Positions 1,120-23,991 of a DNA stretch of 64,000 nt are shown here, piece by piece. Positions within the stretch are counted from its first letter, which is position 1, and each line of letters opens with the position of its first letter. The notes under the pieces are model-generated. The model worked only from the letters and a program-made list of their open reading frames with translations, did no database searches and had not been told where the DNA came from. Position numbers and translations under genes: made by a program. The DNA comes from Candidatus Micrarchaeota archaeon (GTDB lineage Archaea > Micrarchaeota > Micrarchaeia > CABMEP01): assembly GCA_964358895.1 (NCBI GenBank), contig CAYHPR010000003.1, positions 14,473 to 78,472 on the forward strand, in the 5' to 3' direction.

Positions 1120-1603
1120 GCCGAATTGACTTTAATGTCTCTTTATTGTCAGGATCTACAAGAGAACAAATTGCAACAATTTCTTCAGGAGTTCTTACGT
1201 TTATTTCGTTTTTAGCTAAAGTTGCAACACGTATTGCAACTTTGTAAGATTTGCAGAATTTTATGAACCTGCTTATCCGATTGATTGTGACTGCTCTCTG
1301 CAATCCTTCTTTTTCAAAGATATCTGAAAGTGCAATGAGCACTGGTTTTTCTTTATCATGTGCAGCAGCAAGAAATGCAACGTCCGTTTCATATGTTGTT
1401 AGGTAGAGAAGGTCAAAGAACCTAGCAGTTCTTTTCAGTTCCTCCGGGTTGTCTGATTTGGAAATTGCCGGTTTCTTCGTTATTCTGTCGGTCGGAGAAT
1501 AGATGTGAATGTCTTTACCGATTACCTGAACAGAAGAGAAGCCGTATTGATTAAATTTTTCAAAATTAAAGGAAACGATATCAGCAAATTTCGATTTAGG
1601 CAT
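1109..1603 (-). CDS. rnp3: RNase P protein component 3 (Rpp30/Rpp1-like TIM-barrel), short form
   Basis: The C-terminal 100 aa align by eye to Pyrococcus Rpp30: DVAFLAAAHDKEKPVLIALSDIF...RAVTINRISRFIKFCKSYKVAIRVATLAKNEINVRTPEEIVAICSLV against [23 protein letters not shown]...[47 protein letters not shown]. It lies between L15e and Pop5 as in the canonical superoperon. Confidence 0.55.
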   Translation of the reverse strand: MPKSKFADIVSFNFEKFNQYGFSSVQVIGKDIHIYSPTDRITKKPAISKSDNPEELKRTARFFDLLYLTTYETDVAFLAAAHDKEKPVLIALSDIFEKEGLQRAVTINRISRFIKFCKSYKVAIRVATLAKNEINVRTPEEIVAICSLVDPDNKETLKSIRPNV

Positions 1604-2117
1604 AAAGGCCCCTTGTCTTCCTTCCTAACCTTGTCATACCTCTAAATACACGTCCTTTTGGTAGAGTCAGACCCGTGAGTTTAGTGTCGACTAGAATAAT
1701 TTCAAAAAATTTGAGCATACCGTCAGAACCAACAAAGTATGAGTTAAGAACTTCAAGGTTTCTGAATGCTCTGGAAGCTCTCTCTTCAGCAATTAGTTGA
1801 AGTGATTTGTGTCTTGAGAAGAAACGACCCGTCTTTGACGGTTTCCTTCCTCTAAGCATCTTGATACGTTTGCGTTTTCCTCTCTTTACACGTACTCGGA
1901 CAACCACGTAACCTTTCTTTGCCTTGTAGCCCAGCGTGTGTGCTCTTGCGATATTTGTCGGTCTCTCAACACGTACCATCGGAGCTTCTTTTCTCCACTT
2001 AACGATTCTCTCCCGATAAATAGGCGAGCGTTCAGCATATTCGCTCTGGAACGTTTGTTGTATATGTTTATAAGAAGACATAATTATCTTTGATCCTTTA
2101 ACTGTGATTACTTTCAT
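1596..2117 (-). CDS. rpl15e: 50S ribosomal protein L15e
   Basis: Strong match to the archaeal L15e pattern (RPTNIARAHTLGYKAKKGYVVVRVRVKRGKRKR...EERASRAFRNLEVLNSYFVG...RVFRGMTRLGRKTRGL). Confidence 0.9.
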   Translation of the reverse strand: MKVITVKGSKIIMSSYKHIQQTFQSEYAERSPIYRERIVKWRKEAPMVRVERPTNIARAHTLGYKAKKGYVVVRVRVKRGKRKRIKMLRGRKPSKTGRFFSRHKSLQLIAEERASRAFRNLEVLNSYFVGSDGMLKFFEIILVDTKLTGLTLPKGRVFRGMTRLGRKTRGLYA

Positions 2118-2152
2118 CTAAAAGAATATAAGTCTAACGAATAAGCCTATAA

Positions 2153-3385
2153 CTAAAATTCTACGTGTTTACCAGTTCCAACTGTTTCATCAGTCGATTC
2201 TTTCTTTTCTTCGCTTATCCTTCTTTCAATTATTTCTCTCTTTTCAACTTTTTTTTCTTTTTCCTTTGGTTTTTTTTCTTCTTTCTGCCTTTTTTCACCG
2301 CTTATTTCATAAGATTGTTTTCGTTTTCCAATTTGTGTTTCGTAGAACTCATTGACTAGCCTGCTTGCTTCAGCAGCAATTTGGCTAGACCTATCTTTTT
2401 CTTCTTGCTCACTAAGCCATTTATTAAATTTAGTCACATATCTGTTCAAAATATCGTTTAACTTACTTTTTTCTCCGTAGTCTACAATGTCCTGAGGTTT
2501 CTTAGTCTTCTTTTTCTTGACCCATTCGTCCATAAACTCTTTTTTGAGTTGTTCGACTGTTTTTTCTTTTGGTCTTTGTGAGTCTATAAATGCAAGATAT
2601 TCCTCAATTGTTTTGTTTCCGCTCACTTTTCCTATAACTGCTTGAAATAAATTTTTTGCGTATCCCTCTGCGTCATTTCGCCATTTATCTTCGTCAGTTT
2701 GTGGCTCTATCTTTATCTCCTTTACATTTATTGTACGTACTTCATCCAATTTCTGATCAGTCAAGAATGCAAGGCAACTCGCTTGGCGGTTCATTTCAGT
2801 TATTGCATTTTCATATTCTGTCAATTCTTTAGGTTTCGGATAAGTGTTTTGATCACATTCTCTAAGTTTCCATCCGTTCGGCCCCCAATCCTCTTTATCC
2901 CATCTAGCTTCTTGTTTCCATTTCGAGTTAGCTAATGTAGTTCCTTTAGTATACTCTTCAATAACTGGTTTCATTCCAAGTTTTTCTATTATCCTACTTA
3001 TCGCCCCATATTCTGATTCTGTGAGAATAAGCATCAATTTTGCATCTTTATTTTCATCGATAAGAAGCTTGTTTAGTTCTCGGTATTGATTGACATCTAT
3101 CGATCTATCCTTTTGTTGATAGTCTATTTGTTTTAAACATACTTTTGTTTTATCAATCAGTGTCATTGTTTCTTTGTAATCGTGATTAAGTTCTTTGTTT
3201 TTTTTCTGAGCTTTTTTTTCAACTTCGTAATATACTGCCATTACTTTTTCTTTCGTTTCTGCAGGTAGGCTTTCTGTCATTTTGTTAACGATTGCGTTCC
3301 GTAGTTCCTGGCGTTTTCTGAAGGCTTCTTTTTCTGTATCTATTTTCGGTGTTAGTAGTCTCGACACTCCCATTTTATCGCTCAT
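2153..3385 (-). CDS. hypothetical highly charged K/E-rich protein (410 aa)
   Basis: Long clean ORF lying just upstream of L15e on the same strand. Low-complexity KEKEKK tail. No recognisable catalytic motif. Confidence 0.5.
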   Translation of the reverse strand: MSDKMGVSRLLTPKIDTEKEAFRKRQELRNAIVNKMTESLPAETKEKVMAVYYEVEKKAQKKNKELNHDYKETMTLIDKTKVCLKQIDYQQKDRSIDVNQYRELNKLLIDENKDAKLMLILTESEYGAISRIIEKLGMKPVIEEYTKGTTLANSKWKQEARWDKEDWGPNGWKLRECDQNTYPKPKELTEYENAITEMNRQASCLAFLTDQKLDEVRTINVKEIKIEPQTDEDKWRNDAEGYAKNLFQAVIGKVSGNKTIEEYLAFIDSQRPKEKTVEQLKKEFMDEWVKKKKTKKPQDIVDYGEKSKLNDILNRYVTKFNKWLSEQEEKDRSSQIAAEASRLVNEFYETQIGKRKQSYEISGEKRQKEEKKPKEKEKKVEKREIIERRISEEKKESTDETVGTGKHVEF

Positions 3386-3524
3386 ACATCAATATCCAGT
3401 TTTCATTTATAAATTAATGTGTTTTACAACTTATTCGGGAAAATTTCAATCCCAAAGGTATTTATATGAGAAACGCATAACGTATTTAGTTAAGGACGAG
3501 GCGTGTGGGCGCCAGAGGGATTAT

Positions 3525-4994
3525 ATGGTTTCGATATTTGGAAGAAAGAAAAATACTAATCAAACAGATGATTCGGATAAGGATCAAGTCCGTTCAATCG
3601 TTACGCGACTGAGTGAGCGAATAAATAGTTCTAAGACAGATCTTGCAGCAATACAGCCCCTTATCTCAAATAAAGTGGCTGAAAAAGAAGATCTTCTAAG
3701 ACAACAGGCAGAAGCTAGACTTAAGCAAGAAGGCATTGAATACGATATAGTTTATACTGTAAGAACGGTTAATGCAGAAGTAGATCAAAATAAAAAAGAT
3801 CAAACATTAGTGGAAGAGTTGGGAGCACGTAAAGCGCTTCTAGAAGTAAAATGCAAGGCTCTGCAAACTAATCTTGATGAAGAAGCAGCATATTTCGCTG
3901 ATTTGCAAAAAAAGCACGAAGCAAACGTGAAAGAACTTTCTGGTAAACTTAAAAAAGCAGAAGCAGCTCTTTCTGACATTAATTCAAAGGAAACAAAAGA
4001 GCTTGTCGATGCAATTGAGAGACGTTCAAAAGAAGTGAATGAGGCACGTGATCAATTGAAGTTGCTTAAAGTACTTGATGATAAATCTGAAAAGAAAGAA
4101 CAGGCACCTCTCTTTTCAGATTCAACAAAGAGAAAAATACGTAAATCTATTGTAGGCGTAGCCGTTGTAGCTGCTGTATTTGGTCTCTATAAATTAGTCG
4201 AATGGGGTACTAATAAGAAGCTAGAAAGCATAAGAAACGCTGCGAGAGAGGAGTTATTAATTGAAAATGCTAAACAACGGAAAGAAGAACGAAGAAAACT
4301 TGCTGAGCAGACGGCGAAAGAGGAACAAGAAAAGCAGGCAAGCTTAAGTGAAAAAGAGCGAAATATGTTGAAGTATAATGCTAGAATGCCATTACTTATA
4401 GAGGAGCTTAATAAGATTGCATCAGATAAGAAAAATTCAAGGAACAAATTAGCTAAAAGAATAATACAATTAATCAATGAAACAAGCCAAGATGAGTATA
4501 GAACCTTGGTTTTGTTCATAGGTCACGCAGAAAGAGACCTATACAAGCAGGGCTGGAATGGAGATTATAATCAAGACAATTCTCTTAACGATCTAAAAAA
4601 GTATATTCTTAAAGAAAGAGAAGTCGCACAGGAACGTGCTAAGCCAAAAAAGATAACCGAGACAAAAGAGGCGCCTAAACAAGAGTACACGGATGCCCAA
4701 ATACAAAATTCTAAAGAGGTTATGGCTCGTTTATTGGTCGATGTCGTAGAATTAAAAGGGCAAGTGCCAGTCATTAGAACTGCTGACAATGCCAATGAAG
4801 TACTGAAGATTTTGACCAATATCTATCAGGGATCCCTACAGTCAGATGGTGTCGAGTTCATTCCAAACGTAGAAGTTAGAAAAGACGAGAACTCAGAAAC
4901 AACTAATATCAAAAATTATCTTGGTAAGCGCAAGGTTGTTCGTATCAGAGTTGTGGGCGACAGCAAGCTTGAAGCACAGATAGTTAAAAGATAG
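3525..4994 (+). CDS. coiled-coil protein with one central TM helix and a conserved C-terminal module (paralog A)
   Basis: The ATG at 3525 avoids overlap with the upstream minus-strand gene. Heptad-rich, charged sequence. Central hydrophobic helix SIVGVAVVAAVFGLYKLV. The C-terminal 90 aa are about 50% identical to the C-terminus of the next gene (KEVM..KG..DNA..VL..LT..YQGS..GV.F.P....VR.RVVGDSKLEA). Confidence 0.6.
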   Translation: MVSIFGRKKNTNQTDDSDKDQVRSIVTRLSERINSSKTDLAAIQPLISNKVAEKEDLLRQQAEARLKQEGIEYDIVYTVRTVNAEVDQNKKDQTLVEELGARKALLEVKCKALQTNLDEEAAYFADLQKKHEANVKELSGKLKKAEAALSDINSKETKELVDAIERRSKEVNEARDQLKLLKVLDDKSEKKEQAPLFSDSTKRKIRKSIVGVAVVAAVFGLYKLVEWGTNKKLESIRNAAREELLIENAKQRKEERRKLAEQTAKEEQEKQASLSEKERNMLKYNARMPLLIEELNKIASDKKNSRNKLAKRIIQLINETSQDEYRTLVLFIGHAERDLYKQGWNGDYNQDNSLNDLKKYILKEREVAQERAKPKKITETKEAPKQEYTDAQIQNSKEVMARLLVDVVELKGQVPVIRTADNANEVLKILTNIYQGSLQSDGVEFIPNVEVRKDENSETTNIKNYLGKRKVVRIRVVGDSKLEAQIVKR

Positions 4995-5079
4995 TAGTTA
5001 AATCAATTTTACTATCTTTTATTTTCATGCCTTCCCGTAAACATTTAAAAGGGAGGAGTGATCTAATACTCGTGAGGTC

Positions 5080-6756
5080 ATGGGTGATCGTACGCCAGTG
5101 CAAGCACAAAAAAAAGTTGAACCAAAAGTTAGCGATGTGCATAAAGTTGATGCGTCACTAGACCTTCTGTCGCTTTGGGTTGAACAAGGAAGAGGACAAA
5201 AAGGAAAGTTGGAACCTAATCGAGTTGTCAGTGCGTTGCTAATCTCAGATGATTTAAAGAAAGGTAATCAGTCCGACAGTGGCTTTAGAAGCGAAAAAGA
5301 TGCAGAAAAAATATTCTCTACCCTAAAAAATGTCGTCGGGATAACAGAAAAAGGAACAGTGTTCGAATTTAAAACCCGAGACGATATTATGTATCGTACA
5401 CGTTTATTTTTAAATGGTGAAAAAAGTTTTGTTCAGATTACACCTCTGCTTTCTCCACCGTTGGATCTTGCAGATCTCGAAGTTCGTATGAACGGCAAGG
5501 GATCTACCTATGAAGATGCAGCATTCGCAGTCCGCTTTTTGGCCGAAGGTAAAGGAGCAAGTACAATTCTTGTTTTTGACAGCCGAGAAACAGCCGAGAA
5601 ATTTGCTGAACGTTTTTCTACTATTGCAGGCGTTACTAATTTCGAACAGAATAAAATAATCAAGGTCACTCCTCAAATGGGACGGCCGGTAAGTGTTAGG
5701 CAGGGTGGTAATAAAGTTATGTTTGCAGGAGATATCCGACTTATTTACAAAGAAATTTGGAACGAACTAAAAACGCAGTTTGGCCGTGATGAAAGCGATT
5801 TCAAGAGTAAACCATTCGATATTCAGTTAACTGTCAGAAATAAGAACGCATTGGATGTCGCATTAGATGCAATTATTTTGGCCGGTTTCATGTCTACCAA
5901 CCAGAAAGTAGAATACTTGAGAGACGTTAATGACAAACTTACTAATATTTCAGCTGTAATAAGGACGGATCCGAAGGAGTATAAGAACCTTCTTAATAAA
6001 ATGCTAAATCAGCAAAAAATTTGGATTAATACATTTGATAAGGCAGACAGGTCAACCAAAGAAAGAATTATTTTTGAACTTGAAGATGAGTGGCGTAAAG
6101 CAGCTCAAGAACTAATAATCGAAGGGCCAGCCCATTATCTATACAAAGATTTACGAACACTGCGAGGGAAGGACCTTAGGGAGCTAAGGAATACTTTCGC
6201 TCTTAAATTAGGGATGAAAAAATTAGAATCTCCTCCGCAACCCGAACCTTCAGTTAAGAAATCGACAGCCAAAACTGATGAACGGGAAGTCGAAAAATTC
6301 GTAGACATCAAAGGTAAAAATGAGGAGAAAATTTTGGAGCTGCAAAAGTCTGGAAAGGATGTTCCAGTCCTAGAAGTTTCAGAAAAAGAAGCAGATAAAA
6401 TATTACAAGGGCTTATGACATTTAGAAAAACAGAAGAAAAGAAGGGCGTAAAAGAAAAAGTAGAAGAAAAGGCAGAAAAACTAAAGTATTCCTCTGAGCA
6501 GGTTGAGTCAGCTAAAGAAGTCATGAGTCAATTAAAGAAAGATCTTGTGGATATGAAAGGTATTTCGGTTACAAGAAAAGTGGATAATGCATCTGTCGTT
6601 TTAAGTGTTTTGACGGATCTTTACCAAGGATCAGTTAAGCAAGAAGGAGTCACATTCACCCCCTCAGATCTGCAGAAATTTCTAAAGAAAAAAGTTATGC
6701 GTGTCAGAGTCGTTGGCGACAGTAAGCTTGAAGCAGAAGTCATGAAAGCAGATTAA
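5080..6756 (+). CDS. soluble coiled-coil protein with the same C-terminal module (paralog B)
   Basis: A GGGAGGAG ribosome-binding site sits 8-10 nt upstream of the ATG. 558 aa with no TM helix. The C-terminal 90 aa are conserved with paralog A (MRVRVVGDSKLEAEVMK). Confidence 0.65.
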   Translation: MGDRTPVQAQKKVEPKVSDVHKVDASLDLLSLWVEQGRGQKGKLEPNRVVSALLISDDLKKGNQSDSGFRSEKDAEKIFSTLKNVVGITEKGTVFEFKTRDDIMYRTRLFLNGEKSFVQITPLLSPPLDLADLEVRMNGKGSTYEDAAFAVRFLAEGKGASTILVFDSRETAEKFAERFSTIAGVTNFEQNKIIKVTPQMGRPVSVRQGGNKVMFAGDIRLIYKEIWNELKTQFGRDESDFKSKPFDIQLTVRNKNALDVALDAIILAGFMSTNQKVEYLRDVNDKLTNISAVIRTDPKEYKNLLNKMLNQQKIWINTFDKADRSTKERIIFELEDEWRKAAQELIIEGPAHYLYKDLRTLRGKDLRELRNTFALKLGMKKLESPPQPEPSVKKSTAKTDEREVEKFVDIKGKNEEKILELQKSGKDVPVLEVSEKEADKILQGLMTFRKTEEKKGVKEKVEEKAEKLKYSSEQVESAKEVMSQLKKDLVDMKGISVTRKVDNASVVLSVLTDLYQGSVKQEGVTFTPSDLQKFLKKKVMRVRVVGDSKLEAEVMKAD

Positions 6757-6855
6757 TGGCTCGTTCCGTTTATCCTATCTTCTAATTATCCGTTAGCCGT
6801 CGTCTATTGCATTGTATATTGAAAGACTTAAATAGGTAAAACGCACTAAATATTC

Positions 6856-9800
6856 ATGTACACAACGAGTTTCAGGTCTATTAAAGCAATTAAGAAGTTT
6901 ATACTGCATCCTGTACGTAAGTTCATCACTTATCCACTAGTTTCTACTTTTCTTATGTATAATACTGTTCTTGGAACAGATCTGTCCCAGGAGAATGACA
7001 AATATTTAAAAAGAACAATTGATGCTACTATTATGGGAAGTGAAAAGGATATGGGTGGAGTCGTTGCGCAGAAAAAAGAAGAGGTAAAACCAATTACTTC
7101 AGCTCCTACTGTTGTCGGTATTATTGAAAAAGAGATCTATTCTTATCATCAAGCGAATGAAGAAATAAATGGTTTCAAAAGACAAGGATTAGAAACGTTA
7201 AATCAGTTCGATTCCTTATTTAACAGATCAAAAAAGTTTAACAAAGAAAAATCTTCTCAATTTATCGATGCAGACGGTAAGCCACAGTTAAGAAAAGCAT
7301 TAGATTGGTTAAACAAGAATATTGCAAAATTTGAAGATGCTCCAAGAACTGATGCTTATTTTTTACAGCGTTCTCTTGAAATTTTGGGTAAGTTTGAGGC
7401 ATCGGAAGAAAAAGTATTGGATTTACTTAAAAAAGTAGACAAAAGTTTTCAAGAAATCGGAATGGTTGAAGAGGTTCGTACAGCCATAATTGAGCATTAT
7501 CTGCCCATTTTTTATCAGGCTGGAAATATAATTGCAAGTCAAGCAGACAAACGTTCCTATGATGTAGCCGAAGGTAATGCCGATAATTTAACTAAATCCA
7601 TAGATAGGTGGCACACATTCATAAGCAAGTCAGAGTTTACCAAAGAGGATGTTGAAAGTTTCGTTAATGAACAGGATAACTTAGAAAAAGAAAATAAGAA
7701 AAATCATAACCTAGAAATTGATTTGACTAATCCTAAAAATGATATCTCAGGCTTCACGGATTATTCTAAATTCAAGAGAGTACCATTCGACCCAGGCCTT
7801 AATTACATTGGCAAATACTATTCAGCTTTGTTCTCGATACAATTTGAGAAACCAGAAAAACTGAGGAATATTAACTGGTACTATTTAAGTCAGACAGATT
7901 TTGGGTACGCAACCAACGTTACATTCCAATTAATGGATCAAGTTTACCAAGAAGGACTTCAAAGTGTAACTATTGTTAAAAAAGCACTCGAAGATTCGGT
8001 AGGTAAAAAAGTCAAAAAAGAAGAATTCAGATCAAATGCATTCTTACCTGAACGATTTGGCACGATAAGCGATTATTACAAAACTCAGCACAGAGATCTC
8101 AAAAATTTTGTAGGGCAGAGTTTTGATGAGTGGGTCGACATGTATAATCCGCCATATCCTCTTTTAGTCAAACTTAGACTTAGATTAGGAGAGCTTTATA
8201 CAAAAAGCATTTATCATGCAGTTAGAAATGAGAAATCAGAATTCGACCGTAACAAGAAAAGTTCAGAGCAGTTAGTCGCTGTTTTTGAAGAGACACTAAA
8301 ATCTTCTAAAAAATATACTATTGAACAACTTAAGAAATTGAACGGCGTTATGTTGACAGCTAGATCCGCTTCAGGATCTGAGCTTAGAGACATATTGCAC
8401 GATCAGTACGGTCTTGGAAATTTTTACGATTGGTTGGTCTTAAACAAAATCGATGTTGCCAAACTTCTTCTAACTATTCCTATAATTGAACCAGGTAGCA
8501 AAGAAGAGGTTTATCTGCGACACCCTCTTTATGGAAAACTCATGGACGTTTTTGTTACTTCCGTTTTTTATCCTCTTTCGAAAGAGCAAAAACCAAATAT
8601 GCCTTACTTATCAAAGGAAGGCGAACGTTATCCTCTTTTTGGTAATGTTCCTTTTCGTGAATTCATAGTTGGATCTGATAAAAAGATTACTGAAAAGACA
8701 AAGGTATCTGAAGTTGACAAAATAATTGAAGAGAAAAATAAAACATTAATTCCACTGCCGCGTGATATAATCCTAAATGCGAGACAAAGTAAAGAAGATA
8801 TTTCATTCTCACCTGGAGACTCATCAGTTAATACAAAGGTTGCGATCCAACCATACACTTTCGATCTAGTTTCGCACAAATATTCTAAAACAGACAAGGT
8901 TCATGATGAAGAAGCAATCTCCTTTACACCTGGAGTAAGAACAACAATCTTCGGAGTTCCAGTCAATCTGACTATGTCAGACGAGTGGGGTGCAGATATC
9001 CCTGCGTATCTATTGAGAAATCCATTCGAAAAAGACTTTAGGAATCAGAGATGGGATGCATCCTATGAACAGGTTAAATTCACAAAAGATGATCAAACAA
9101 TCGAAATAACTTATTCAGACATAAGTAGTTTCGATCAATTCGTTCTCCAAAATAAAGGATGGAATAAAGAAGGAAATATATATTCCAAAGGGAAGTACAA
9201 GTTGACAATAGGTGAAAATGATTTCGTTTTGAGCGATACAAAGCAAGAAGTTTCCATTAAGATTCCAAAAGATTTTTCAGAGTATGCTAGACCAGAAGAT
9301 AAGGATAAAAAAAGAATTCGATACGGGACAGAGGGTGTTAAAGTAGACATGCCTAGATACTATGCAACTTTCAAATCAAACAAAGCACCCGTATCTGCTG
9401 AGATACCGTTGACATCTGCCCACGGAGATGTGCGTTTCATTAAGAGCTGGTTTTGGTTAAACAGATCTATTGTATCTGTGCCAGGAGACGGACTGAAGGC
9501 AGGACAGGACTTCCATGTTAAATCAATAGTTTCAAGAGAACCAACTCAAAGAACATTTTCTTTAGGTGTTAGAACTGGAGGATATTCAGCATATCAGACA
9601 AAAAGTGAGATTGAAACTAACTTACCTCCTTCTCTTTCAATTCAACCTCCAGTTTCTGTTTCTAGGACGATCAATCAGCAGCTTTCTTTTGTCAATACTG
9701 CATTTATTCCAAATCCGATAGTCTTGAAGAATTTGGGGATTAAAGCAGGAGATATTTTATCAGCTGCAGATTCATTGAAGAATTATGTAGATGTAATGCA

Positions 9801-10926
9801 ACAGAATGCTACAAATATTAATCACGGAAATGCAGAGCTTGAAGCATATCAGTTATCAGTTCACGAATTATTCACAAAACTTTATCCAAAAGCAAAGGTG
9901 TCTGGTGAAATTAAGAACGTACTTGATCAGTATGCAAGAGATGGGCTTCTCACTGACAAAGTGGTTAACGCGCTCAAAGATGCAAATCTGATCGCAATAC
10001 CAAACGGATCAACAACAGAAAGGACGGTTAAGCAGGACGTAAGTTTCAATATTCAATCATTCCTGCTTCGATTTACAAAAGTTAAAGGAGTTGTATTAGG
10101 TGCAGGTGGAGGATTCGGTGATGTTAAATTTGACTATGAAATAACTGCACCAGTTCCAAGAATGAAACAAGAGTATTCTTCACTATTGAAGAGAGACGTG
10201 TTCCTGCCAGAAACAGACAACGAAGGAAGGCCAATACTGGACAAAAAGACATTCAATTTTTCAACTTCTGAAAAGATTAAAGGGCCAATAATCCAGATTG
10301 AGGGCAAACGTACAGCTGCTAGAATGGAATGGTTATTTTCGGAATCTGTTGATGTAAAGAATCTTATCAAGTCCGGTCCAGCTGTTGCAGATGTTCCGAT
10401 CGATCTTTTCAAAAAGAAATACAACAGTATTCTCGATCTTGCACAATTGATAACTCTCCCGTTGGTTCCAACAATTAATTCAGTCAAAGTAACTGGCCAG
10501 CTCGGAGAAATGAGTTCATTAAGACTTGCTTGGGATGTTGCACACGTTCCTATGTCCGAACTTCCATTCTACGGACAAAAAATAGGCGAACAGGTATTGG
10601 ATCGATTCCCAAACTGGCTTAGAAGAATGATTCCAGAAGTTAAGGAGATTCCTTTTGGTGCAACAATCGGATTTGTTGCTGAGAAACAAAAGGCAGGAAG
10701 TATTGAGGTTGATTTTGAAAAATATGCGAATGCAAAGATCCAGTTTGGTCCAGAAGCTATCCGATTCTGGTGGATGACGACAGTCGGAAGAAAGGATCAA
10801 GAGATTAGGCAATATGGAATGTCTGTCGACCTTCAGCAAGCATTCCAAAAGAAATGGCTTCCACTCAGAGCATTTGCGTCTAAGGGACAAGACAATACGC
10901 ATATTGGTGTTGAACTAACTTGGTAA
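6856..10926 (+). CDS. giant orphan protein (about 1300 aa), no signal peptide, no P-loop
   Basis: Uninterrupted 4-kb ORF co-directional with and tightly spaced after paralogs A and B. No TM segment, no Walker A motif and no recognisable enzymatic motif. Ends in IGVELTW. The true start may be an internal Met, since the first 60 aa are odd. Confidence 0.6.
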   Translation: MYTTSFRSIKAIKKFILHPVRKFITYPLVSTFLMYNTVLGTDLSQENDKYLKRTIDATIMGSEKDMGGVVAQKKEEVKPITSAPTVVGIIEKEIYSYHQANEEINGFKRQGLETLNQFDSLFNRSKKFNKEKSSQFIDADGKPQLRKALDWLNKNIAKFEDAPRTDAYFLQRSLEILGKFEASEEKVLDLLKKVDKSFQEIGMVEEVRTAIIEHYLPIFYQAGNIIASQADKRSYDVAEGNADNLTKSIDRWHTFISKSEFTKEDVESFVNEQDNLEKENKKNHNLEIDLTNPKNDISGFTDYSKFKRVPFDPGLNYIGKYYSALFSIQFEKPEKLRNINWYYLSQTDFGYATNVTFQLMDQVYQEGLQSVTIVKKALEDSVGKKVKKEEFRSNAFLPERFGTISDYYKTQHRDLKNFVGQSFDEWVDMYNPPYPLLVKLRLRLGELYTKSIYHAVRNEKSEFDRNKKSSEQLVAVFEETLKSSKKYTIEQLKKLNGVMLTARSASGSELRDILHDQYGLGNFYDWLVLNKIDVAKLLLTIPIIEPGSKEEVYLRHPLYGKLMDVFVTSVFYPLSKEQKPNMPYLSKEGERYPLFGNVPFREFIVGSDKKITEKTKVSEVDKIIEEKNKTLIPLPRDIILNARQSKEDISFSPGDSSVNTKVAIQPYTFDLVSHKYSKTDKVHDEEAISFTPGVRTTIFGVPVNLTMSDEWGADIPAYLLRNPFEKDFRNQRWDASYEQVKFTKDDQTIEITYSDISSFDQFVLQNKGWNKEGNIYSKGKYKLTIGENDFVLSDTKQEVSIKIPKDFSEYARPEDKDKKRIRYGTEGVKVDMPRYYATFKSNKAPVSAEIPLTSAHGDVRFIKSWFWLNRSIVSVPGDGLKAGQDFHVKSIVSREPTQRTFSLGVRTGGYSAYQTKSEIETNLPPSLSIQPPVSVSRTINQQLSFVNTAFIPNPIVLKNLGIKAGDILSAADSLKNYVDVMQQNATNINHGNAELEAYQLSVHELFTKLYPKAKVSGEIKNVLDQYARDGLLTDKVVNALKDANLIAIPNGSTTERTVKQDVSFNIQSFLLRFTKVKGVVLGAGGGFGDVKFDYEITAPVPRMKQEYSSLLKRDVFLPETDNEGRPILDKKTFNFSTSEKIKGPIIQIEGKRTAARMEWLFSESVDVKNLIKSGPAVADVPIDLFKKKYNSILDLAQLITLPLVPTINSVKVTGQLGEMSSLRLAWDVAHVPMSELPFYGQKIGEQVLDRFPNWLRRMIPEVKEIPFGATIGFVAEKQKAGSIEVDFEKYANAKIQFGPEAIRFWWMTTVGRKDQEIRQYGMSVDLQQAFQKKWLPLRAFASKGQDNTHIGVELTW

Positions 10927-10982
10927 CCTGCGAAGAGCAGACATTAAAAAGATAAGTTACTTGATCTATAGATCCTGATTGT

Positions 10983-12755
10983 ATGTCGAAAAGTATCAAA
11001 GCTATAACGTGTATAAACACGAGATTATCCCAACGTTTTTCCTATCTATCAGTCTTCATTCTATTTCTAACATTTTTTTCGTTTTCAGGAACAGTTTCTG
11101 CACAATCCCGTACTCAAGTATACGTCGCACATTACGGCGATGTAGAGTATTACGGTATTTCACTTGGAAACAACTTCGCAGTTTCGCAAAATGCTAGTGT
11201 CGGAGGAACTGCAGTTACAAATGGATCAAATGTTTGTACAGGTTCTTCGTTGGACGTCACAGTGCTTAATGCCTCTACAACCACTGAACTGTCAAATTCA
11301 AAAGTATCCTGTGCTCTTGACTGTACAAGTCCTGATACCACTTCCGCTTTGACAGCGTTTCCTCTTCCGATATTATGGCAAAGTTCCGGTACATATTCAT
11401 CTAATGTTAATAGTTACTCTCCTCCGAATGCAGGGGATAGCTTTTGTAAGGGTCCGTTCGATACGCCACAGCCTCCAAATCCATTGGCACCCAACACAGA
11501 AAATGTGAATTACGATATAATAGGGATCGATAAAGGAACTGCACGTGCTAATTTAGGACTTTTCTGTTACGGAAGTACACAGACTTCACTTGATGGCTCT
11601 TCAGTTAGTTCACCAGTTGGTCTTAACACTAATGGATCAAAAACCTTGTTAAGTTCTATGATTGTCAACGAATGCTCCATGTTAGTTCGATCTTATGAGA
11701 ATCCAGGGTTCCAAGGCAAACCCTGGACTGCTGATTGTTTATATTCACCAGTTGGAGGATTTTTTCCTTTAACTACAGCGTCTACAACCACATTCAACGT
11801 TGTCAGAGGAGTTAATCTCACCGGCCCTTTTGGCAGTTACACTGCAAATCCAAGCAGCACAATGATCATCACTTTGCCAGTTACAAATACAGGCGATTTA
11901 GGTGCATCCGTTACAGGTATTTCACTTTCAGCAGGGTTCACAGTCAATAGTATTGTACCCGCACTTCCTGTAACCGTGGCTGCTGGTACTTCTACATCCT
12001 TCACAATTAATGCATCAACGCCCGCAGTAGCAGGAAATTACACTCCAAATGCCACAGTAACCTTCACTCCAACACCAGCAGCGATTGGTGCGTGTGGTGT
12101 GGCAGGTTCAACTGCAAGCGTATCGATCGGCAACATAGTAGTTGCGCCGGGTGTTGTGCCAGGCGGTGGCCCGAGTGGCGGTGGCCCTGGTTGCGTATCA
12201 GGTATCACTACTCCGCTCAGCATAACGATGCGAGCAACTCCAGCCTCTCTCCTTAATACACTACTTCTTTCTTCTCCACCAAATGTCAACAATGTTACAC
12301 TTGTTGCAGAAATAAGCAGGCCAAACAGCGGTTGCATCGGAAACGACATAAAAGCAAATATAACGGTTTACAGTTACAACGCATCCGGTCAACGCAATAT
12401 AGTGAGGTATAAATCTACAGATTTTTCATGCATTGATGCAGGCGTGTCTAGGAAGAATGCGAAAACATGTTATCCAGCATCCTCAGTTGATGGCAGCAAC
12501 TGTATTTATTCAATGTCACCGTCAAATAGTCCTGGTGTCAGTTCAGCATTTAATTTCACAGTCATACAGCCATTCCTTTATTCAGCAACACAATCTTCAG
12601 TTTGTCCGGCAGATCAATACGGAATATTCAACTCTCCTTTTTCCGATTCTATCTATGAGGCTGAGATTAGCATATCTGATCCAATCGCCTCTTCCACTCA
12701 GACACGTTCAACTTTCTTCGGAATCTACGGATTAACATGCCAAGAAAGAGCATAA
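10983..12755 (+). CDS. secreted Cys-rich, sequon-rich surface glycoprotein candidate
   Basis: N-terminal signal peptide (FSYLSVFILFLTFFSFSGTVSAQS). More than 25 N-x-S/T sequons, S/T/G/N/P-rich, and a GGGPSGGGPG linker. Locally GC-rich, about 60% in the 12.1-12.2 kb stretch. Confidence 0.6.
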   Translation: MSKSIKAITCINTRLSQRFSYLSVFILFLTFFSFSGTVSAQSRTQVYVAHYGDVEYYGISLGNNFAVSQNASVGGTAVTNGSNVCTGSSLDVTVLNASTTTELSNSKVSCALDCTSPDTTSALTAFPLPILWQSSGTYSSNVNSYSPPNAGDSFCKGPFDTPQPPNPLAPNTENVNYDIIGIDKGTARANLGLFCYGSTQTSLDGSSVSSPVGLNTNGSKTLLSSMIVNECSMLVRSYENPGFQGKPWTADCLYSPVGGFFPLTTASTTTFNVVRGVNLTGPFGSYTANPSSTMIITLPVTNTGDLGASVTGISLSAGFTVNSIVPALPVTVAAGTSTSFTINASTPAVAGNYTPNATVTFTPTPAAIGACGVAGSTASVSIGNIVVAPGVVPGGGPSGGGPGCVSGITTPLSITMRATPASLLNTLLLSSPPNVNNVTLVAEISRPNSGCIGNDIKANITVYSYNASGQRNIVRYKSTDFSCIDAGVSRKNAKTCYPASSVDGSNCIYSMSPSNSPGVSSAFNFTVIQPFLYSATQSSVCPADQYGIFNSPFSDSIYEAEISISDPIASSTQTRSTFFGIYGLTCQERA

Positions 12756-12848
12756 TCTACTACTTTTATGCGGTGTGAAACCACCGCTCTATTTTAACTA
12801 GAAATAAGTGCAAAACTTGTAAGCAGCACAATCATTAGATCAGATCAA

Positions 12849-13142
12849 GTGGGAACAGATATACTTATAAATAAGTGGGATGATATTATTAATATGACAA
12901 GTGGGGCCGAATATATTTTATTGCCGGTTGACAAAAAAGGCAGGATACATCTTCCAAAAAAGCTACGTGAAGACTTAGGCATTAGTGAGCACGTTGTTGC
13001 TGAAAAAGAATCAGATATGTTAATTCTTAAACCTACAAAGAAGATTTCAGATCCTCTAACATTTCTTACATCTTTTCAGATAAAAACAAAAAAGACTCCT
13101 GTCGAAATGAAGCGAGAGGCTGAGGAAGGATTTGGGAGATAA
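12849..13142 (+). CDS. AbrB/SpoVT/MazE-family antitoxin (VapB-like)
   Basis: Swapped-hairpin motif ILLPVDKKGRIHLPKKLREDLGISEH. Overlaps the downstream PIN gene by 11 nt. Confidence 0.55.
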   Translation: MGTDILINKWDDIINMTSGAEYILLPVDKKGRIHLPKKLREDLGISEHVVAEKESDMLILKPTKKISDPLTFLTSFQIKTKKTPVEMKREAEEGFGR

Positions 13143-13536
13143 GATGCGTTACTATCTTGATGCCGACATATTACTTGCTTTACTAAAGCAAAATGACCAT
13201 TTAAAGCAAAAAGCTAACAGATGGATTGCAGACAATAAAGACAAAAATGAACTAATAACTTCATCATTATCCTGTTTAGAAGTGTTATTCTATCTCTATA
13301 AAAACGGTCTGTCCGAAAATGCATTGGACATCATAAGGGCCATATCCATATTGTGCAAGGTTACTTATTTCAATTTTCAACATATAGAACAATCCATCAT
13401 TCTTTCTGAACATCACTCTCTTAGTCCAGCAGATTCTATACATGCAGTTCTGGCTATGAACTATGATGCAATTATTAGTAGTGATAAGTCATTTGATAAA
13501 GTTCATAATCTAACTCGGATCGATTTCACAGCTTAA
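13132..13536 (+). CDS. vapC: PIN-domain nuclease (VapC-like toxin)
   Basis: N-terminal YLDADILL with an acidic residue, a later SSLSCLEV, and a C-terminal DAIISSDKSFD. Acidic-residue spacing is typical of PIN domains. Translationally coupled to the upstream AbrB-like gene. Confidence 0.6.
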   Translation: MGDKMRYYLDADILLALLKQNDHLKQKANRWIADNKDKNELITSSLSCLEVLFYLYKNGLSENALDIIRAISILCKVTYFNFQHIEQSIILSEHHSLSPADSIHAVLAMNYDAIISSDKSFDKVHNLTRIDFTA

Positions 13537-13579
13537 GGATAAATTTAAAAGACCTCTATGAATATCTAGAGTAGATAGT

Positions 13580-14308
13580 ATGTTTGAAACATTCGGACAC
13601 TCATTGCAGGTTTATTTCAAGTACCTAACTATGATTCTTTTCTTTTCCATTCCTTTCGTTATTGCTCTCTTGCTTCCATATCTGTCGCCAGCACCAGTTT
13701 TCAGCGCGCTAGGAGGATACTTCTTAAGATCTGGAAGCCTTCCAGAGCTCCAATTAGCTGACTCTTTGATTATTATCGTTATTTCCCTTCTCTCCCTAGC
13801 CTTCCTTTCACTAGCACTCGTGGCAATCAATCTAGTAGTCAAGTCCAGCAGAACAAGAACAAAAGTAAGCGCAGAAGCCTTGAAAAGTTTAGGTAAATAC
13901 ACGGCAGTTGTACTTGCTATTTTTGTGGCTGTTAAGGTCGTTGAGACGCTGATCCTTCTTTATGTAATAGGTTCAGGTGTTTCAGAATTGCCAGTTTTCA
14001 TTTTCTCTTTCCTTTCCACATTAGGCCTTTTCTATGTGGCACCGGCAGTCGTTCTTGAGGAAAAGAAGCCGGCGCCTGCCTTTATCGCAAGTTACAAAAA
14101 TATCCTTATCAAGCCACTTCATTTCATCCTCTGGCTAGTAGTCGCATTCCTTCTGGTATATGTTGTTTCTTCAATCTCATTTGCACTTTTCACAGAAACA
14201 GCCCTTAGGCAAGGATTCATTGTTTTAGTCAATTCCTTATTCGTCCTGCCATTTCTAGTAATCCTTCAGGCACAGATGTATATCGCGAAGTATACGCTGA
14301 TAAAATAA
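13580..14308 (+). CDS. hypothetical polytopic membrane protein
   Basis: Six or more hydrophobic helices. No recognisable motif. Confidence 0.4.
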   Translation: MFETFGHSLQVYFKYLTMILFFSIPFVIALLLPYLSPAPVFSALGGYFLRSGSLPELQLADSLIIIVISLLSLAFLSLALVAINLVVKSSRTRTKVSAEALKSLGKYTAVVLAIFVAVKVVETLILLYVIGSGVSELPVFIFSFLSTLGLFYVAPAVVLEEKKPAPAFIASYKNILIKPLHFILWLVVAFLLVYVVSSISFALFTETALRQGFIVLVNSLFVLPFLVILQAQMYIAKYTLIK

Positions 14309-19082: not shown

Positions 19083-20402
19083 ATGAATAAATCCGTGAAA
19101 AAAGCAGTTATAGGGTTGTCAATTCTTTCTATTAGTTTTTCTTCATATCTATTAACCGAAACATTTAGGAGTAAAACTAATAAATTCGTCAAACAGGAAA
19201 ATATTATTGAACAGGCAGAAAAAAATATTGAAAAGATAAGAAAAGGAAAATTTATAATTAATTTTATAAATAAATCTGGTCAGCCAATAAAAAATACAGA
19301 CATTTCCGTTAATCAGTTATCGCATAATTTTAAATTCGGAGGAGCACTTAGTTTATATAACGATAAAAATTATGATAAATATAAAGAAGAATTCTTAAGT
19401 TTATTTAATTATGCAACTTTTGAAACGGCATTAAAATGGAAAATTTTAGAACCAACAATTAATGAATACGATTATGGCTGGGCGGATAATCTATTGGATT
19501 GGTGCAAAAAAAATAACATTGCAGTTAAAGGCCATGCTGTTTTATGGGGGAATAAAAAATGGGGTTTACCTGATTGGTTACAACATTTAGATAATAAAAA
19601 AGTTGAACAAAGAATTGATTTACATATTAAATCCATAATGAATAGATACAAAGATTACATTAAAATATGGGATATTATCAATGAACCATTGACGGATGAA
19701 TTTTTTGGAAATATTGCTAAAGATTATGCTGAAAACGCACTCATTACGGCACGTAAAATTGATCCTAAGGCTAAATTAGTTATTAATGAATTCGGAGTTA
19801 TACATAATAGAGCTAAAAGAGAAAGATTTTATACATACCTCAATAAACTAAAAGAAAAAAATATACCGTTCGATATTATTGGTTTACAAGCACATGAACC
19901 AGTCAATGGTTTTTTCGATTTTAATGAGGTTGCCAATACTTTAAATTATTTCGGAGCATTGGGAAAAGAAATACATATAACTGAATTTGCAGTTCAAACA
20001 AAAAATATTGATGGTTCTTATACTAATGTAGCCGAAAGCCTAATTCAAGGAAATTGGAACGACGATTTACAAGCGTATTATTATGAAAATTTTTATAAGA
20101 TATGTTTTGGTAATGAACATGTTAGTTCTATAACTCTCTGGGCTTTATTCGATGATCGATCATGGTTACTTGGAAGCGGCTTATTTGATAATTATTATAA
20201 GCAAAAAAAAGCATATTTTGTATTAAACAATCTAATAAATACAAAATGGAAAACCAAGGGGTTATATAAGACAAACAAAGAGGGTCAAATAAATTTCAAT
20301 GGTTTTTTTGGAAAATATTCAATAAAAGTTGAGGGATTTAAAACGGAGCACTTTATTAATTTAGAATCGGCCAACTTAACTTATAATCTCTCTATCGAAT
20401 AG
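19083..20402 (+). CDS. GH10-like glycoside hydrolase (beta-1,4-xylanase fold) with N-terminal signal anchor
   Basis: ALKWKILEP, WDIINEPL (acid/base Glu), LQAHEP and EIHITEFAV (nucleophile Glu) follow the order and spacing of GH10 catalytic motifs. Hydrophobic N-terminus. Confidence 0.6.
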   Translation: MNKSVKKAVIGLSILSISFSSYLLTETFRSKTNKFVKQENIIEQAEKNIEKIRKGKFIINFINKSGQPIKNTDISVNQLSHNFKFGGALSLYNDKNYDKYKEEFLSLFNYATFETALKWKILEPTINEYDYGWADNLLDWCKKNNIAVKGHAVLWGNKKWGLPDWLQHLDNKKVEQRIDLHIKSIMNRYKDYIKIWDIINEPLTDEFFGNIAKDYAENALITARKIDPKAKLVINEFGVIHNRAKRERFYTYLNKLKEKNIPFDIIGLQAHEPVNGFFDFNEVANTLNYFGALGKEIHITEFAVQTKNIDGSYTNVAESLIQGNWNDDLQAYYYENFYKICFGNEHVSSITLWALFDDRSWLLGSGLFDNYYKQKKAYFVLNNLINTKWKTKGLYKTNKEGQINFNGFFGKYSIKVEGFKTEHFINLESANLTYNLSIE

Positions 20403-21614: not shown

Positions 21615-22859
21615 ATGAACATATTAAGGATAATGCTTAACGCCCCTCCTTTTAAAGGTGGTGCAGAAAATAGAATACACGAAATTAGCAAAGTTCTTGC
21701 TAAAAAACATAAAATAACTGTATTAACTGGGGGTATTCCGGAAGGAAAAGAAAAAGTAGTAGACGGTATCAGATATATTTATTTTGGGGATATGAATATT
21801 TTTACAGGTTTTAAAAACGATTCTCTATCTGAAATGATAAAATGGTTAATCGATGTAAGTAGATACATCTTTTTTAAAAATATTAATATAAAACGATTTG
21901 AAGGTACTTATCTAAGGGCTATGGCAGATTGGTTAAACAAAAATGGAAAAGATTACGACATTATAATAAATGAATTTACGCCTGGGGCAATACGGCCAAT
22001 TTCCAATTACCCTTATAGTCTTAATGTAATACACTTAAGATATTCTTTATTTGATACATTCGAAAAGTCAACTAAATTTGGATGGAAATTTAATTGGTTA
22101 GAAGTCCCGTATTATTATCTATTTCAGCAATTTCTTTTTTTAACAAATAAAAATTTTATAGTTTGTAAGACTGATGATGCAAATGCAATACACTTTCTAA
22201 ATAAAAATGCAAAAATTAAAGTTATTCATCCTGCGGCTGATCCCAGCTTAAGGAAAGCAAAGACCGAAGAAAAAAATTTTATCTTATATATGGGTAGAAT
22301 AGATAAATACCAAAAAGGATTAGATCTACTTTTAGAAGCATTTGCTGAATTAAACTGCAAAGAAAAACTTGTTGTTGCAGGAGATGGTTATGATTTACTA
22401 GAACTTAAAGAAAAAGTTAAAGACTTAGATATAAAAAACAGAGTAAAGTTTGTTGGTTGGGTTGCTGGGAACAGTAAGAGGAAACTATTAACTAAATGTA
22501 AATTTGTTGTTATGCCTTCTAGAATAGAAGGATTAAGCCTCACATCTTTGGAGGCAGCTTATTGTGGAAAAGCAATTTTAGGCACTAATGCAGTTGCACA
22601 TGGCCTTCCAAACGTGTATTTAATTGAGTTGAATAAACAGGATATCTATCGGGGTTTAATTACTCTACTTAATAACTCCAAATTAAGGAAGAAATTAGGA
22701 AATAAAGGTAGAAAAGCAGCGAATAAATTTTCGTGGGAGAGTTCAGCAGGATTAGAAGAAGATTCATATAATCAAATTTTTAATAATAACAAATTAAAGA
22801 GCGAGATAACTGGTTTCGATGAAAATCTTAAGAATATTTTTAAACGCCCCTCCTTTTAA
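21615..22859 (+). CDS. GT4 glycosyltransferase, tandem copy 1 with junction-encoded C-terminus
   Basis: EX7E-type motif SRIEGLSLTSLEAAYCGKAILG. The body is identical to the downstream copy. The last 31 aa are encoded by the duplication junction and overlap the start of copy 2. Confidence 0.65.
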   Translation: MNILRIMLNAPPFKGGAENRIHEISKVLAKKHKITVLTGGIPEGKEKVVDGIRYIYFGDMNIFTGFKNDSLSEMIKWLIDVSRYIFFKNINIKRFEGTYLRAMADWLNKNGKDYDIIINEFTPGAIRPISNYPYSLNVIHLRYSLFDTFEKSTKFGWKFNWLEVPYYYLFQQFLFLTNKNFIVCKTDDANAIHFLNKNAKIKVIHPAADPSLRKAKTEEKNFILYMGRIDKYQKGLDLLLEAFAELNCKEKLVVAGDGYDLLELKEKVKDLDIKNRVKFVGWVAGNSKRKLLTKCKFVVMPSRIEGLSLTSLEAAYCGKAILGTNAVAHGLPNVYLIELNKQDIYRGLITLLNNSKLRKKLGNKGRKAANKFSWESSAGLEEDSYNQIFNNNKLKSEITGFDENLKNIFKRPSF

Positions 22860-23963
22860 AGGTGGTGCAGAAAATAGAATACACGAAATTAGCAAAGTTC
22901 TTGCTAAAAAACATAAAATAACTGTATTAACTGGGGGTATTCCGGAAGGAAAAGAAAAAGTAGTAGACGGTATCAGATATATTTATTTTGGGGATATGAA
23001 TATTTTTACAGGTTTTAAAAACGATTCTCTATCTGAAATGATAAAATGGTTAATCGATGTAAGTAGATACATCTTTTTTAAAAATATTAATATAAAACGA
23101 TTTGAAGGTACTTATCTAAGGGCTATGGCAGATTGGTTAAACAAAAATGGAAAAGATTACGACATTATAATAAATGAATTTACGCCTGGGGCAATACGGC
23201 CAATTTCCAATTACCCTTATAGTCTTAATGTAATACACTTAAGATATTCTTTATTTGATACATTCGAAAAGTCAACTAAATTTGGATGGAAATTTAATTG
23301 GTTAGAAGTCCCGTATTATTATCTATTTCAGCAATTTCTTTTTTTAACAAATAAAAATTTTATAGTTTGTAAGACTGATGATGCAAATGCAATACACTTT
23401 CTAAATAAAAATGCAAAAATTAAAGTTATTCATCCTGCGGCTGATCCCAGCTTAAGGAAAGCAAAGACCGAAGAAAAAAATTTTATCTTATATATGGGTA
23501 GAATAGATAAATACCAAAAAGGATTAGATCTACTTTTAGAAGCATTTGCTGAATTAAACTGCAAAGAAAAACTTGTTGTTGCAGGAGATGGTTATGATTT
23601 ACTAGAACTTAAAGAAAAAGTTAAAGACTTAGATATAAAAAACAGAGTAAAGTTTGTTGGTTGGGTTGCTGGGAACAGTAAGAGGAAACTATTAACTAAA
23701 TGTAAATTTGTTGTTATGCCTTCTAGAATAGAAGGATTAAGCCTCACATCTTTGGAGGCAGCTTATTGTGGAAAAGCAATTTTAGGCACTAATGCAGTTG
23801 CACATGGCCTTCCAAACGTGTATTTAATTGAGTTGAATAAACAGGATATCTATCGGGGTTTAATTACTCTACTTAATAACTCCAAATTAAGGAAGAAATT
23901 AGGAAATAAAGGTAGAAAAGCAGCGAATAAATTTTCGTGGGAGAGTTCAGCAGGATTAGAAGA
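21639..23963 (+). repeat. tandem direct duplication of two 1121-bp units (period 1204 bp, 83-bp junction) of a GT4 gene
   Basis: Every position I compared matches between the copies: 21657 with 22861, 21721 with 22925, 22621 with 23825 and 22751 with 23955. Divergence occurs only in the first 25 nt (MNILRIM against MKILRIF) and after ggattagaaga. Confidence 0.8.
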
Positions 23964-23991
23964 GGTCTATTATGCCGCATTACGCAAATGA
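22819..23991 (+). CDS. GT4 glycosyltransferase, tandem copy 2 with native C-terminus
   Basis: Same protein as 21615-22859 over about 373 aa. Ends EVYYAALRK. Confidence 0.7.
   Translation: MKILRIFLNAPPFKGGAENRIHEISKVLAKKHKITVLTGGIPEGKEKVVDGIRYIYFGDMNIFTGFKNDSLSEMIKWLIDVSRYIFFKNINIKRFEGTYLRAMADWLNKNGKDYDIIINEFTPGAIRPISNYPYSLNVIHLRYSLFDTFEKSTKFGWKFNWLEVPYYYLFQQFLFLTNKNFIVCKTDDANAIHFLNKNAKIKVIHPAADPSLRKAKTEEKNFILYMGRIDKYQKGLDLLLEAFAELNCKEKLVVAGDGYDLLELKEKVKDLDIKNRVKFVGWVAGNSKRKLLTKCKFVVMPSRIEGLSLTSLEAAYCGKAILGTNAVAHGLPNVYLIELNKQDIYRGLITLLNNSKLRKKLGNKGRKAANKFSWESSAGLEEVYYAALRK

Follow-up and report, generated by a model that had tools for sequence, protein, structure and literature searches.

DPANN archaea rely on physical contact with their host cells, and nearly all of the proteins behind it are ORFans that lack annotation and evolve fast. 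In the cohesin-dockerin systems of cellulosomes, archaeal examples included, dissimilar proteins carry a short C-terminal module matched in type to a partner on a very large surface scaffold encoded nearby. Another kind of extreme C-terminal domain on unrelated proteins from surface-protein clusters is known from the type IX secretion system (T9SS), with its C-terminal domain (CTD), and from the PGF-CTERM/archaeosortase system. In DPANN symbionts, e.g., Nanoarchaeota, an elevated density of non-synonymous single-nucleotide polymorphisms was reported for hypothetical surface proteins (Jarett et al. 2018, PMC6142677). Here, we describe a C-terminal module shared by two adjacent ORFans, ORF1 and ORF2, encoded directly upstream of a giant protein, ORF3, in a Candidatus Micrarchaeota archaeon (GenBank assembly GCA_964358895.1, contig CAYHPR010000003.1, positions 14,473 to 78,472 of the forward strand); these 64,000 nucleotides are called the window below. 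Open reading frames (ORFs) 1 to 4 are same-strand ORFans standing in a row:

3525..4994, plus strand: ORF1, 489 amino acids (aa), from the ORF list
4686..4994, plus strand: module 1, window type, ORF1 aa 388-489, stop codon included
5080..6756, plus strand: ORF2, 558 aa, from the ORF list
6487..6756, plus strand: module 2, window type, ORF2 aa 470-558, stop codon included
6856..10926, plus strand: ORF3, giant of 1356 aa with an N-terminal signal-anchor-like segment, the candidate partner of the modules
10983..12755, plus strand: ORF4, S/T/P/G-rich secreted protein of 590 aa with a signal peptide, a conserved cluster member

The similarity between ORF1 and ORF2 is limited to their last 102 and last 89 residues, respectively, with 44-51% identity. 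In the BLASTP alignment, ORF1 aa 388-488 pair with ORF2 aa 470-556 (44% identity, 72% positives, E 4e-22), and MAFFT gives 50% identity over the aligned module columns. The original prediction, made from the letters of the window, had reported C-termini of about 90 aa aligning at about 50%, and this figure holds; all of its conserved blocks (KEVM, KG, DNA..VL, LT..YQGS, GV.F.P and R[IV]RVVGDSKLEA) reappear in the MAFFT alignment, and the 1356-aa downstream ORF is present as described. Only the start of module 1 had to be moved, from 4710 to 4686, about eight codons earlier. The Smith-Waterman score of the modules is 211 versus 28.9 +/- 5.3 for 2000 shuffles (z 34), whereas the N-terminal bodies (387 and 469 residues) show no significant similarity (z 1.4 versus shuffles) and are as dissimilar as predicted; therefore, the similarity of the modules is not compositional. 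No module copy is hidden within the N-terminal bodies (z below 1.6), and the six frames of the window contain no third copy. Independently assembled contigs from groundwater of the Hainich well H52 (European Nucleotide Archive, ENA, ERZ1292622) match parts of the window at 100% and 99.8% identity, and one of them is 100% identical over 1911-5188, spanning the whole of ORF1. Therefore, the ORF1 copy, at least, is no assembly artefact; the ORF2 module falls outside the independently assembled stretches. Overall, the shared C-terminal module is a confirmed observation.

Codon-position identities of the module pair are 0.62, 0.78 and 0.40. By the Nei-Gojobori method, the proportion of synonymous differences (pS) is 0.75, which is saturated, the proportion of non-synonymous differences (pN) is 0.30 and the non-synonymous distance (dN) is 0.38, while the rate at which identical residues share a codon is no higher than expected from codon usage (z 1.2). 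This marks the copies as old and selectively maintained; they are not products of a recent duplication. With identical codons at their expected frequency, there is no sign of recent gene conversion in the window, and the 3' flanks of the two modules share only a short CTATCTT-like T-rich stretch. Module pairs of the related lineages introduced below have a dN of 0.36-0.64 with a synonymous distance (dS) that is at least 1.45 or saturated, so that all module pairs are under purifying selection.

The two carriers are built differently. ORF1 most likely begins at ATG 3525, behind a GAGGG and a TTTATAT box and at the position where the aligned orthologs also start; public gene calls begin at ATG 3417 (525 aa). 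Its N-terminal region is K/E-rich and coiled-coil-like and leads into a single central transmembrane (TM) helix, predicted from hydropathy at aa 207-227 (nucleotides 4143-4205), followed by a charged helical stalk and a small helical domain that contains the motif GWNGxY; a K/E/P/T linker then connects to module 1. The flanks of the TM helix weakly favour an N-in/C-out orientation. ORF2, judged from hydropathy, is soluble, without a TM helix or a signal peptide. It has a conserved MGDRTP.QAQK motif at the N-terminus, followed by an alpha/beta body, and module 2 comes after a K/E-rich linker. No C-terminal hydrophobic helix appears in the hydropathy of either protein. A low-complexity K/E/P/T linker precedes the module in all six proteins from the window and the two related lineages with complete pairs, which suggests a tethered domain.

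AlphaFold2, run on the two-sequence module alignment, gave a best model with a predicted local distance difference test score (pLDDT) of 84 and a predicted template-modelling score (pTM) of 0.76; a prediction for full-length ORF2 (pLDDT 35) was unusable. The model has the topology a1-b1-a2-b2-b3-a3-b4-b5, i.e., a helix, then a ferredoxin-like beta-alpha-beta-beta-alpha-beta unit, plus an extra strand. The invariant RVVGDSKLEA block is modelled as the b4-turn-b5 hairpin, and strand periodicity suggests an exposed sheet face as the position of its conserved R, R, K and E side chains.

The original prediction could not name the module as a known domain, and neither can we: Pfam, NCBIfam, PHROGs, PADLOC and PDB hold no credible match (Pfam was scanned with full proteins at E up to 0.1 and with isolated modules at E up to 10). 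PHROGs has no family for ORF1-4, for the neighbouring 410-aa protein or for either module. For ORF1-4 and the modules, the sole PADLOC match is a weak one of module 2 to Cmr1/RAMP (PDLC01111; E 0.0015, 15.9 bits, 55 profile positions), which we ruled out, module 1 being unmatched and cas genes absent from the window. A word-index search of 5.8 billion proteins returned nothing with the module alignment or ORF3, and full-length ORF2 found only itself. A HMMER scan of 1.84 billion representative proteins with the module retrieved only ORF2 itself and one Calx-beta repeat protein; it missed ORF1, though the 525-aa call of ORF1 sits in the underlying collection, and therefore the absence of homologs from that library is not airtight. 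Module pattern scans found no relative in GTDB genomes, Joint Genome Institute (JGI) metagenomes or IMG/VR. In a related genome (L001), C-termini look faintly module-like by eye, with a match that is not significant (0.7 bits). As far as these searches reach, the module appears to be a new orphan domain.

Direct module searches were empty. Related genomes were reached by anchoring on the neighbouring gene for ribosomal protein L15e. One metagenome contig (L083), which ends inside ORF2, encodes proteins orthologous to the bodies of ORF1 and ORF2 (26-27% identity, E ~1e-19). Exact-sequence look-up of its ORF1 ortholog led to L163 (ENA ERZ27247916), a 23-kb contig with a complete pair and the start of a giant, and the L15e of another contig (L082) led to a third lineage, L165 (JGI Ga0373628_0000782), with a near-identical variant, L171. 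Gene order in L163 and L165 is as in the window: a K/E-rich protein, an ORF1-type protein, an ORF2-type protein and a giant. The L165 cluster encodes proteins of 295 aa (K/E-rich), 512 aa (ORF1-type), 548 aa (ORF2-type) and 1129 aa (giant), followed by an ORF4-type protein that is truncated in L165 and complete, with 577 aa, in L171; L163 ends inside the giant. The ORF1 orthologs of L163 (514 aa) and L165 are 26% identical to ORF1 (E ~1e-19 to 5e-20), each with one central TM helix, and the ORF2 ortholog of L163 (583 aa) is 27% identical to ORF2 over 453 aa (E 1e-27).

Both relatives repeat the arrangement seen in the window. The C-termini of the ORF1-type and ORF2-type proteins of L163 are 38% identical over 95 aa (E 6e-11 in a two-sequence comparison, z 18-19), and the bodies of these proteins are unrelated (z 0.6). 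In L165, the C-termini are 46-53% identical (E 4e-21, z 33). These modules of ~93 aa are mutually homologous between L163 and L165 (37-48% identity, z 16-30). However, the window modules score at z below 2 against every one of them, with a profile-profile probability of 0.2%, and a hidden Markov model of the L163/L165-type module has no match in the window. Pairwise identities among the three lineages are as follows (window-L163, window-L165, L163-L165):

L15e:.83,.84,.83
RNase P subunit p30:.70,.66,.63
RNase P subunit Rpp14:.70,.68,.73
ORF1 body:.30,.29,.30
ORF2 body:.30,.25,.27
module 1: noise, noise,.44
module 2: noise, noise,.47
giant, first 510 aa: noise, noise,.59

The three lineages are thus equidistant in conserved genes and in both protein bodies, but not in the modules or the giant. 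The giants of L163 and L165 show no detectable similarity to ORF3, though they are 59% identical to each other. Since the modules of L163 and L165 (44-47%) evolve more slowly than the bodies (27-30%), a window module of the same type would have been recognisable. To judge from these comparisons, the type switch covered module 1, module 2 and the giant together and spared both protein bodies, ORF4 and the flanks. Because the 1.4-kb ORF2 body separates module 1 from module 2 and the giant, such a switch implies at least two events, or a replacement followed by conversion. Within the L163/L165 type, four-taxon module distances are star-like, and homogenisation within L165 is possible, though not required. 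Three outgroups (L084, L085 and L086) have one mid-size protein and a giant of yet another type, and only ORF4 and a downstream membrane protein are recognisably homologous there. Two new orphan domain types are defined in this way.

The reading that we tentatively favour, placing it a little short of probable, is that the module is a cognate association (docking) domain that binds the giant or a complex containing the giant. Two proteins with the same module, switching jointly with the giant, are what such a domain would produce, and the co-variation of module and giant types across three equidistant lineages partly supports the link to the downstream giant. The module is discrete, C-terminal and placed behind a low-complexity linker, and of the docking or targeting role put forward in the original prediction, targeting, in the sense of a secretion tag, is the less well supported half. 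The C-terminal 90-100 residues would be an autonomous alpha+beta domain on a flexible tether, marking a conserved pair of a single-pass membrane protein with a long stalk (ORF1) and a soluble alpha/beta protein (ORF2). In a family of Micrarchaeota from groundwater and sediment, the genes of this pair stand immediately before that of a giant secreted protein. The two proteins would have to match in module type, and this type would be matched to the neighbouring giant. Most likely, the module would bind to the giant itself or to a complex assembled around the giant, with ORF1 tethering the giant to the membrane and ORF2 joining the same assembly. What we infer is that the module binds physically, to which partner, and in which cellular compartment. 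It fits this picture that module 1 of an N-in/C-out ORF1 would lie outside the cell, on the side expected for a giant with a signal peptide.

Several points weigh against docking to the giant. ORF2 has no signal peptide or TM helix, and if the ORF1 module is extracellular, the two modules may lie in different compartments. With three lineages but only two types, a single switching event has been shown, and module 2 is contiguous with the giant gene, so that one recombination could replace both without a functional link. The window-type and L163/L165-type modules could be one fold diverged beyond detection, the apparent switch being a burst of divergence rather than a replacement; by eye, the order of secondary structures is colinear in the two types, which may share a fold. 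The module model itself is moderately reliable, with just two of five models above pLDDT 80, and the module region falls below pLDDT 50 in the full-length ORF2 prediction.

The main rival to docking is module-module pairing, in which the modules bind each other, ORF2 is recruited to the membrane-anchored ORF1, the giant hitch-hikes on module 2, and module 1 must follow a switch of module 2 to keep the pairing. Paralogous domains that keep a dimer interface often bind each other, the modules match each other in all three genomes, and module 2 with the giant forms one contiguous segment (6487-10926) which a single replacement would cover; moreover, the most conserved stretch, RVVGDSKLEA, is modelled as an exposed beta-hairpin (b4-b5), an element often found in edge-to-edge dimers. 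We nevertheless regard pairing as rather unlikely, since the predicted topology, weak as it is, puts the ORF1 module outside and the ORF2 module inside the cell, and since pairing leaves the constant position of the giant directly downstream unexplained. A sorting or export tag, i.e., a C-terminal recognition domain for a secretion or surface-attachment machinery like the bacterial T9SS CTD, would explain how ORF2 reaches the surface without a signal peptide. The module is strictly C-terminal in six of six proteins and ends in an alternating hydrophobic strand followed by K/R, and the rest of the cluster consists of secreted or membrane proteins. Yet only two carriers exist per locus, a general machinery would have no need for a type switch that follows the giant next door, both ORF4 and the giant lack the module and are secreted all the same, and neither a known sorting family in Pfam/NCBIfam nor a C-terminal hydrophobic helix was found, all of which makes the tag improbable.

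We consider it just as improbable that the module is an evolutionary by-product of partial duplication or gene conversion between adjacent 3' ends, with no shared function. The genes are indeed adjacent on the same strand, and the paralogous modules of L165 (dN 0.36) are closer than orthologous pairs (0.48-0.52), a hint of homogenisation. The saturated synonymous sites and the pN of 0.30 speak for long-term purifying selection on both copies instead, the arrangement is kept in three lineages ~17% apart in L15e, and the L163/L165 modules evolve more slowly than the bodies; in L163, the paralogs do not resemble each other more than the orthologs do, so that conversion is not ongoing.

A broader proposal, which we put forward as speculative and on the unlikely side, is an archaeal type-switching docking system, in which a conserved anchor (ORF1) and an accessory protein (ORF2) with interchangeable C-terminal adaptors mount whichever giant is current. 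If it holds, DPANN episymbionts could swap a host-facing giant as a cassette while keeping the anchoring machinery. In any case, the locus gives a testable hypothesis for three ORFans, in which a matched module links an anchor and an accessory protein, both conserved, to a giant that varies. If the module is a docking element, it would point to the part of each protein where binding should be sought, and it would explain how a giant may be exchanged without rebuilding the anchor; if it only pairs ORF1 with ORF2, there would still be a conserved complex in an uncharacterised gene cluster.

ORF3 has no homolog and, at E up to 0.1, no Pfam or NCBIfam family except for one chance-level DUF762 match. 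The giants of the related lineages have clear signal peptides. An independent Hainich assembly (L161) differs from window 8359-13628 by 10 mismatches and one indel, and ORF3 is called there as pieces of 805 aa and 50 aa, reflecting either strain variation or a sequencing frameshift. ORF4 is 38-43% identical to its L171/L165 counterpart (E 2e-95) and 28% identical to that of L084.

An N-terminal motif that recurs across the proteins of the cluster, in the window as well as in L163, L165, L001 and L084, forms a second sequence link between ORF2 and the giants. The N-terminus of ORF2 (5080-5130) reads MGDRTPVQAQKKVEPK, with MGDHTPAQAQK in L163 and MGDRTPAQA in L165, and the K/E-rich neighbour (3371-3385 of the window, minus strand) starts with MSDKM or MSDRM. 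All related giants have MADKMPAQAQ..EPK or MGDRKMAGAQK right after the signal peptide and an 'IKHLKT.RE.IIQ.S' leader, and ORF3 aa 60-80 (7033-7095) holds MGSEKDMGGVVAQKKEEVKP at the matching position.

A further family of giants (1080-1286 aa) lies beside the L15e/RNase P operon in L165 (11372-14614), L163 (2764-6603), L001 (6128-9988) and L084 (6202-9906), directly downstream of Rpp14 in L165 and L163 and upstream of and divergent from L15e in L001 and L084. These giants have a signal peptide and aromatic C-termini (e.g., ...TFGYSF, ...LLGGYKF) reminiscent of beta-barrel ends. The window starts too near Rpp14 to reveal such a giant. A second giant ORFan of the window (41851-45627, 1258 aa), without a Pfam family and without similarity to ORF3, is flanked by nucleotidyltransferase genes: an MNT-HEPN-like nucleotidyltransferase/HEPN pair downstream (45763-46721), and upstream a nucleotidyltransferase (40053-40652) followed by an unannotated ORF (40628-41023).

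The source of the window is a DPANN archaeon of the Micrarchaeota, and its L15e is closest to sequences from Micrarchaeota metagenome-assembled genomes. The window also encodes the RNase P subunits p30 and Rpp14, as well as a proteasome, SBDS and exosome operon; no Rfam family or tRNA was found in it. Around the four ORFans lie the following features:

1596-2117, minus strand: ribosomal protein L15e
2153..3385, minus strand: K/E-rich protein of 410 aa, divergent from ORF1, a conserved positional neighbour (345 aa in L163, 295 aa in L165)
12770-12787: terminator-like hairpin downstream of ORF4

Past this hairpin come an AbrB/VapC pair and then a low-GC glycosylation island of ~27 kb. The pair, an AbrB/MazE-like antitoxin and a PIN (VapC-like) toxin at 12849-13536, stands between ORF4 and a conserved membrane protein (13580-14308), and in L084 the ORF4-type and membrane-protein genes are directly adjacent, without a toxin-antitoxin pair between them. 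The island (14339-41725) has 27-32% GC over ~16-36 kb versus 35-41% elsewhere and is dense with genes for glycosyltransferases (GT2, GT4 and PMT_2) and for a pair of ABC-2 exporter proteins. Its other products include a member of the GH10 xylanase family (19083-20402, E 8e-61) and one GH15-like protein. It is a surface-glycosylation island adjoining the ORFan cluster. Tandem GT4 genes at 21615-23991 (414 and 390 aa) are 99% identical over 385 aa with a 41-nt overlap, being either a very recent duplication or an assembly repeat.

Turning back to described systems, the sole non-self match among the 1.84 billion proteins was the Calx-beta protein, with an E of 8.8e-5 summed over six repeats: a 17-residue strand-turn-strand of the module, KKVxRVRVVGDSKLEA, resembles VIRVPVIGDTKVEPDE. 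However, only profile positions 81-97 match, and the module fold is predicted with three helices instead of the all-beta sandwich of Calx-beta. Because the Pfam family (PF03160) is unmatched over its ~100-aa domain and the predicted fold is not all-beta, we consider this match a motif coincidence. Small alpha+beta two-layer sandwiches (the R3H/KhpB-Jag domain, AcrID1 and AFV1 ORF99) also count among the nearest described systems; for the RNA-binding R3H/KhpB-Jag domain, the R-x-x-x-H motif together with a convincing fold match was not found. Dockerin type I (PF00404, two Ca-binding 22-residue repeats) gave no match with full proteins (E up to 0.1) or modules (E up to 10), and ORF3 contains no cohesin modules at E up to 0.1 in Pfam/NCBIfam. 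C-terminal sorting signals (T9SS CTD, PGF-CTERM and relatives) had no Pfam/NCBIfam match for the full proteins, which lack a C-terminal TM helix. The objection that the module is a common known domain is thus not borne out by dockerin, Calx-beta, R3H, sorting signals or Cmr1.

Like the T9SS CTD and PGF-CTERM/archaeosortase signals, the module occupies the very end of unrelated proteins encoded in a surface-protein cluster; unlike them, it has only two carriers, and its type varies together with a gene next door rather than with a conserved machinery. The cluster shares with the fast-evolving surface proteins of DPANN archaea its lineage-specific ORFans, predicted to be membrane-bound or secreted, which evolve far faster than housekeeping genes and lie beside a large glycosylation island. 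Neither matched C-terminal modules nor joint switching with a giant is described by Jarett et al. (2018, PMC6142677). The likeness to cohesin-dockerin covers the short C-terminal module on dissimilar proteins, the very large surface scaffold partner encoded nearby and the match between module type and partner type, the giant being the candidate partner here; the differences are the predicted alpha+beta fold, in place of the Ca-binding duplicated-helix dockerin, and the two carriers per locus. Overall, the module may represent a new form of an idea already known, the modular cognate docking domain, at a DPANN surface-protein locus that awaits characterisation; the co-variation of its type with the giant partly supports docking. 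Should the type-switching system prove true, it would parallel cohesin-dockerin in function while using folds unrelated to it.

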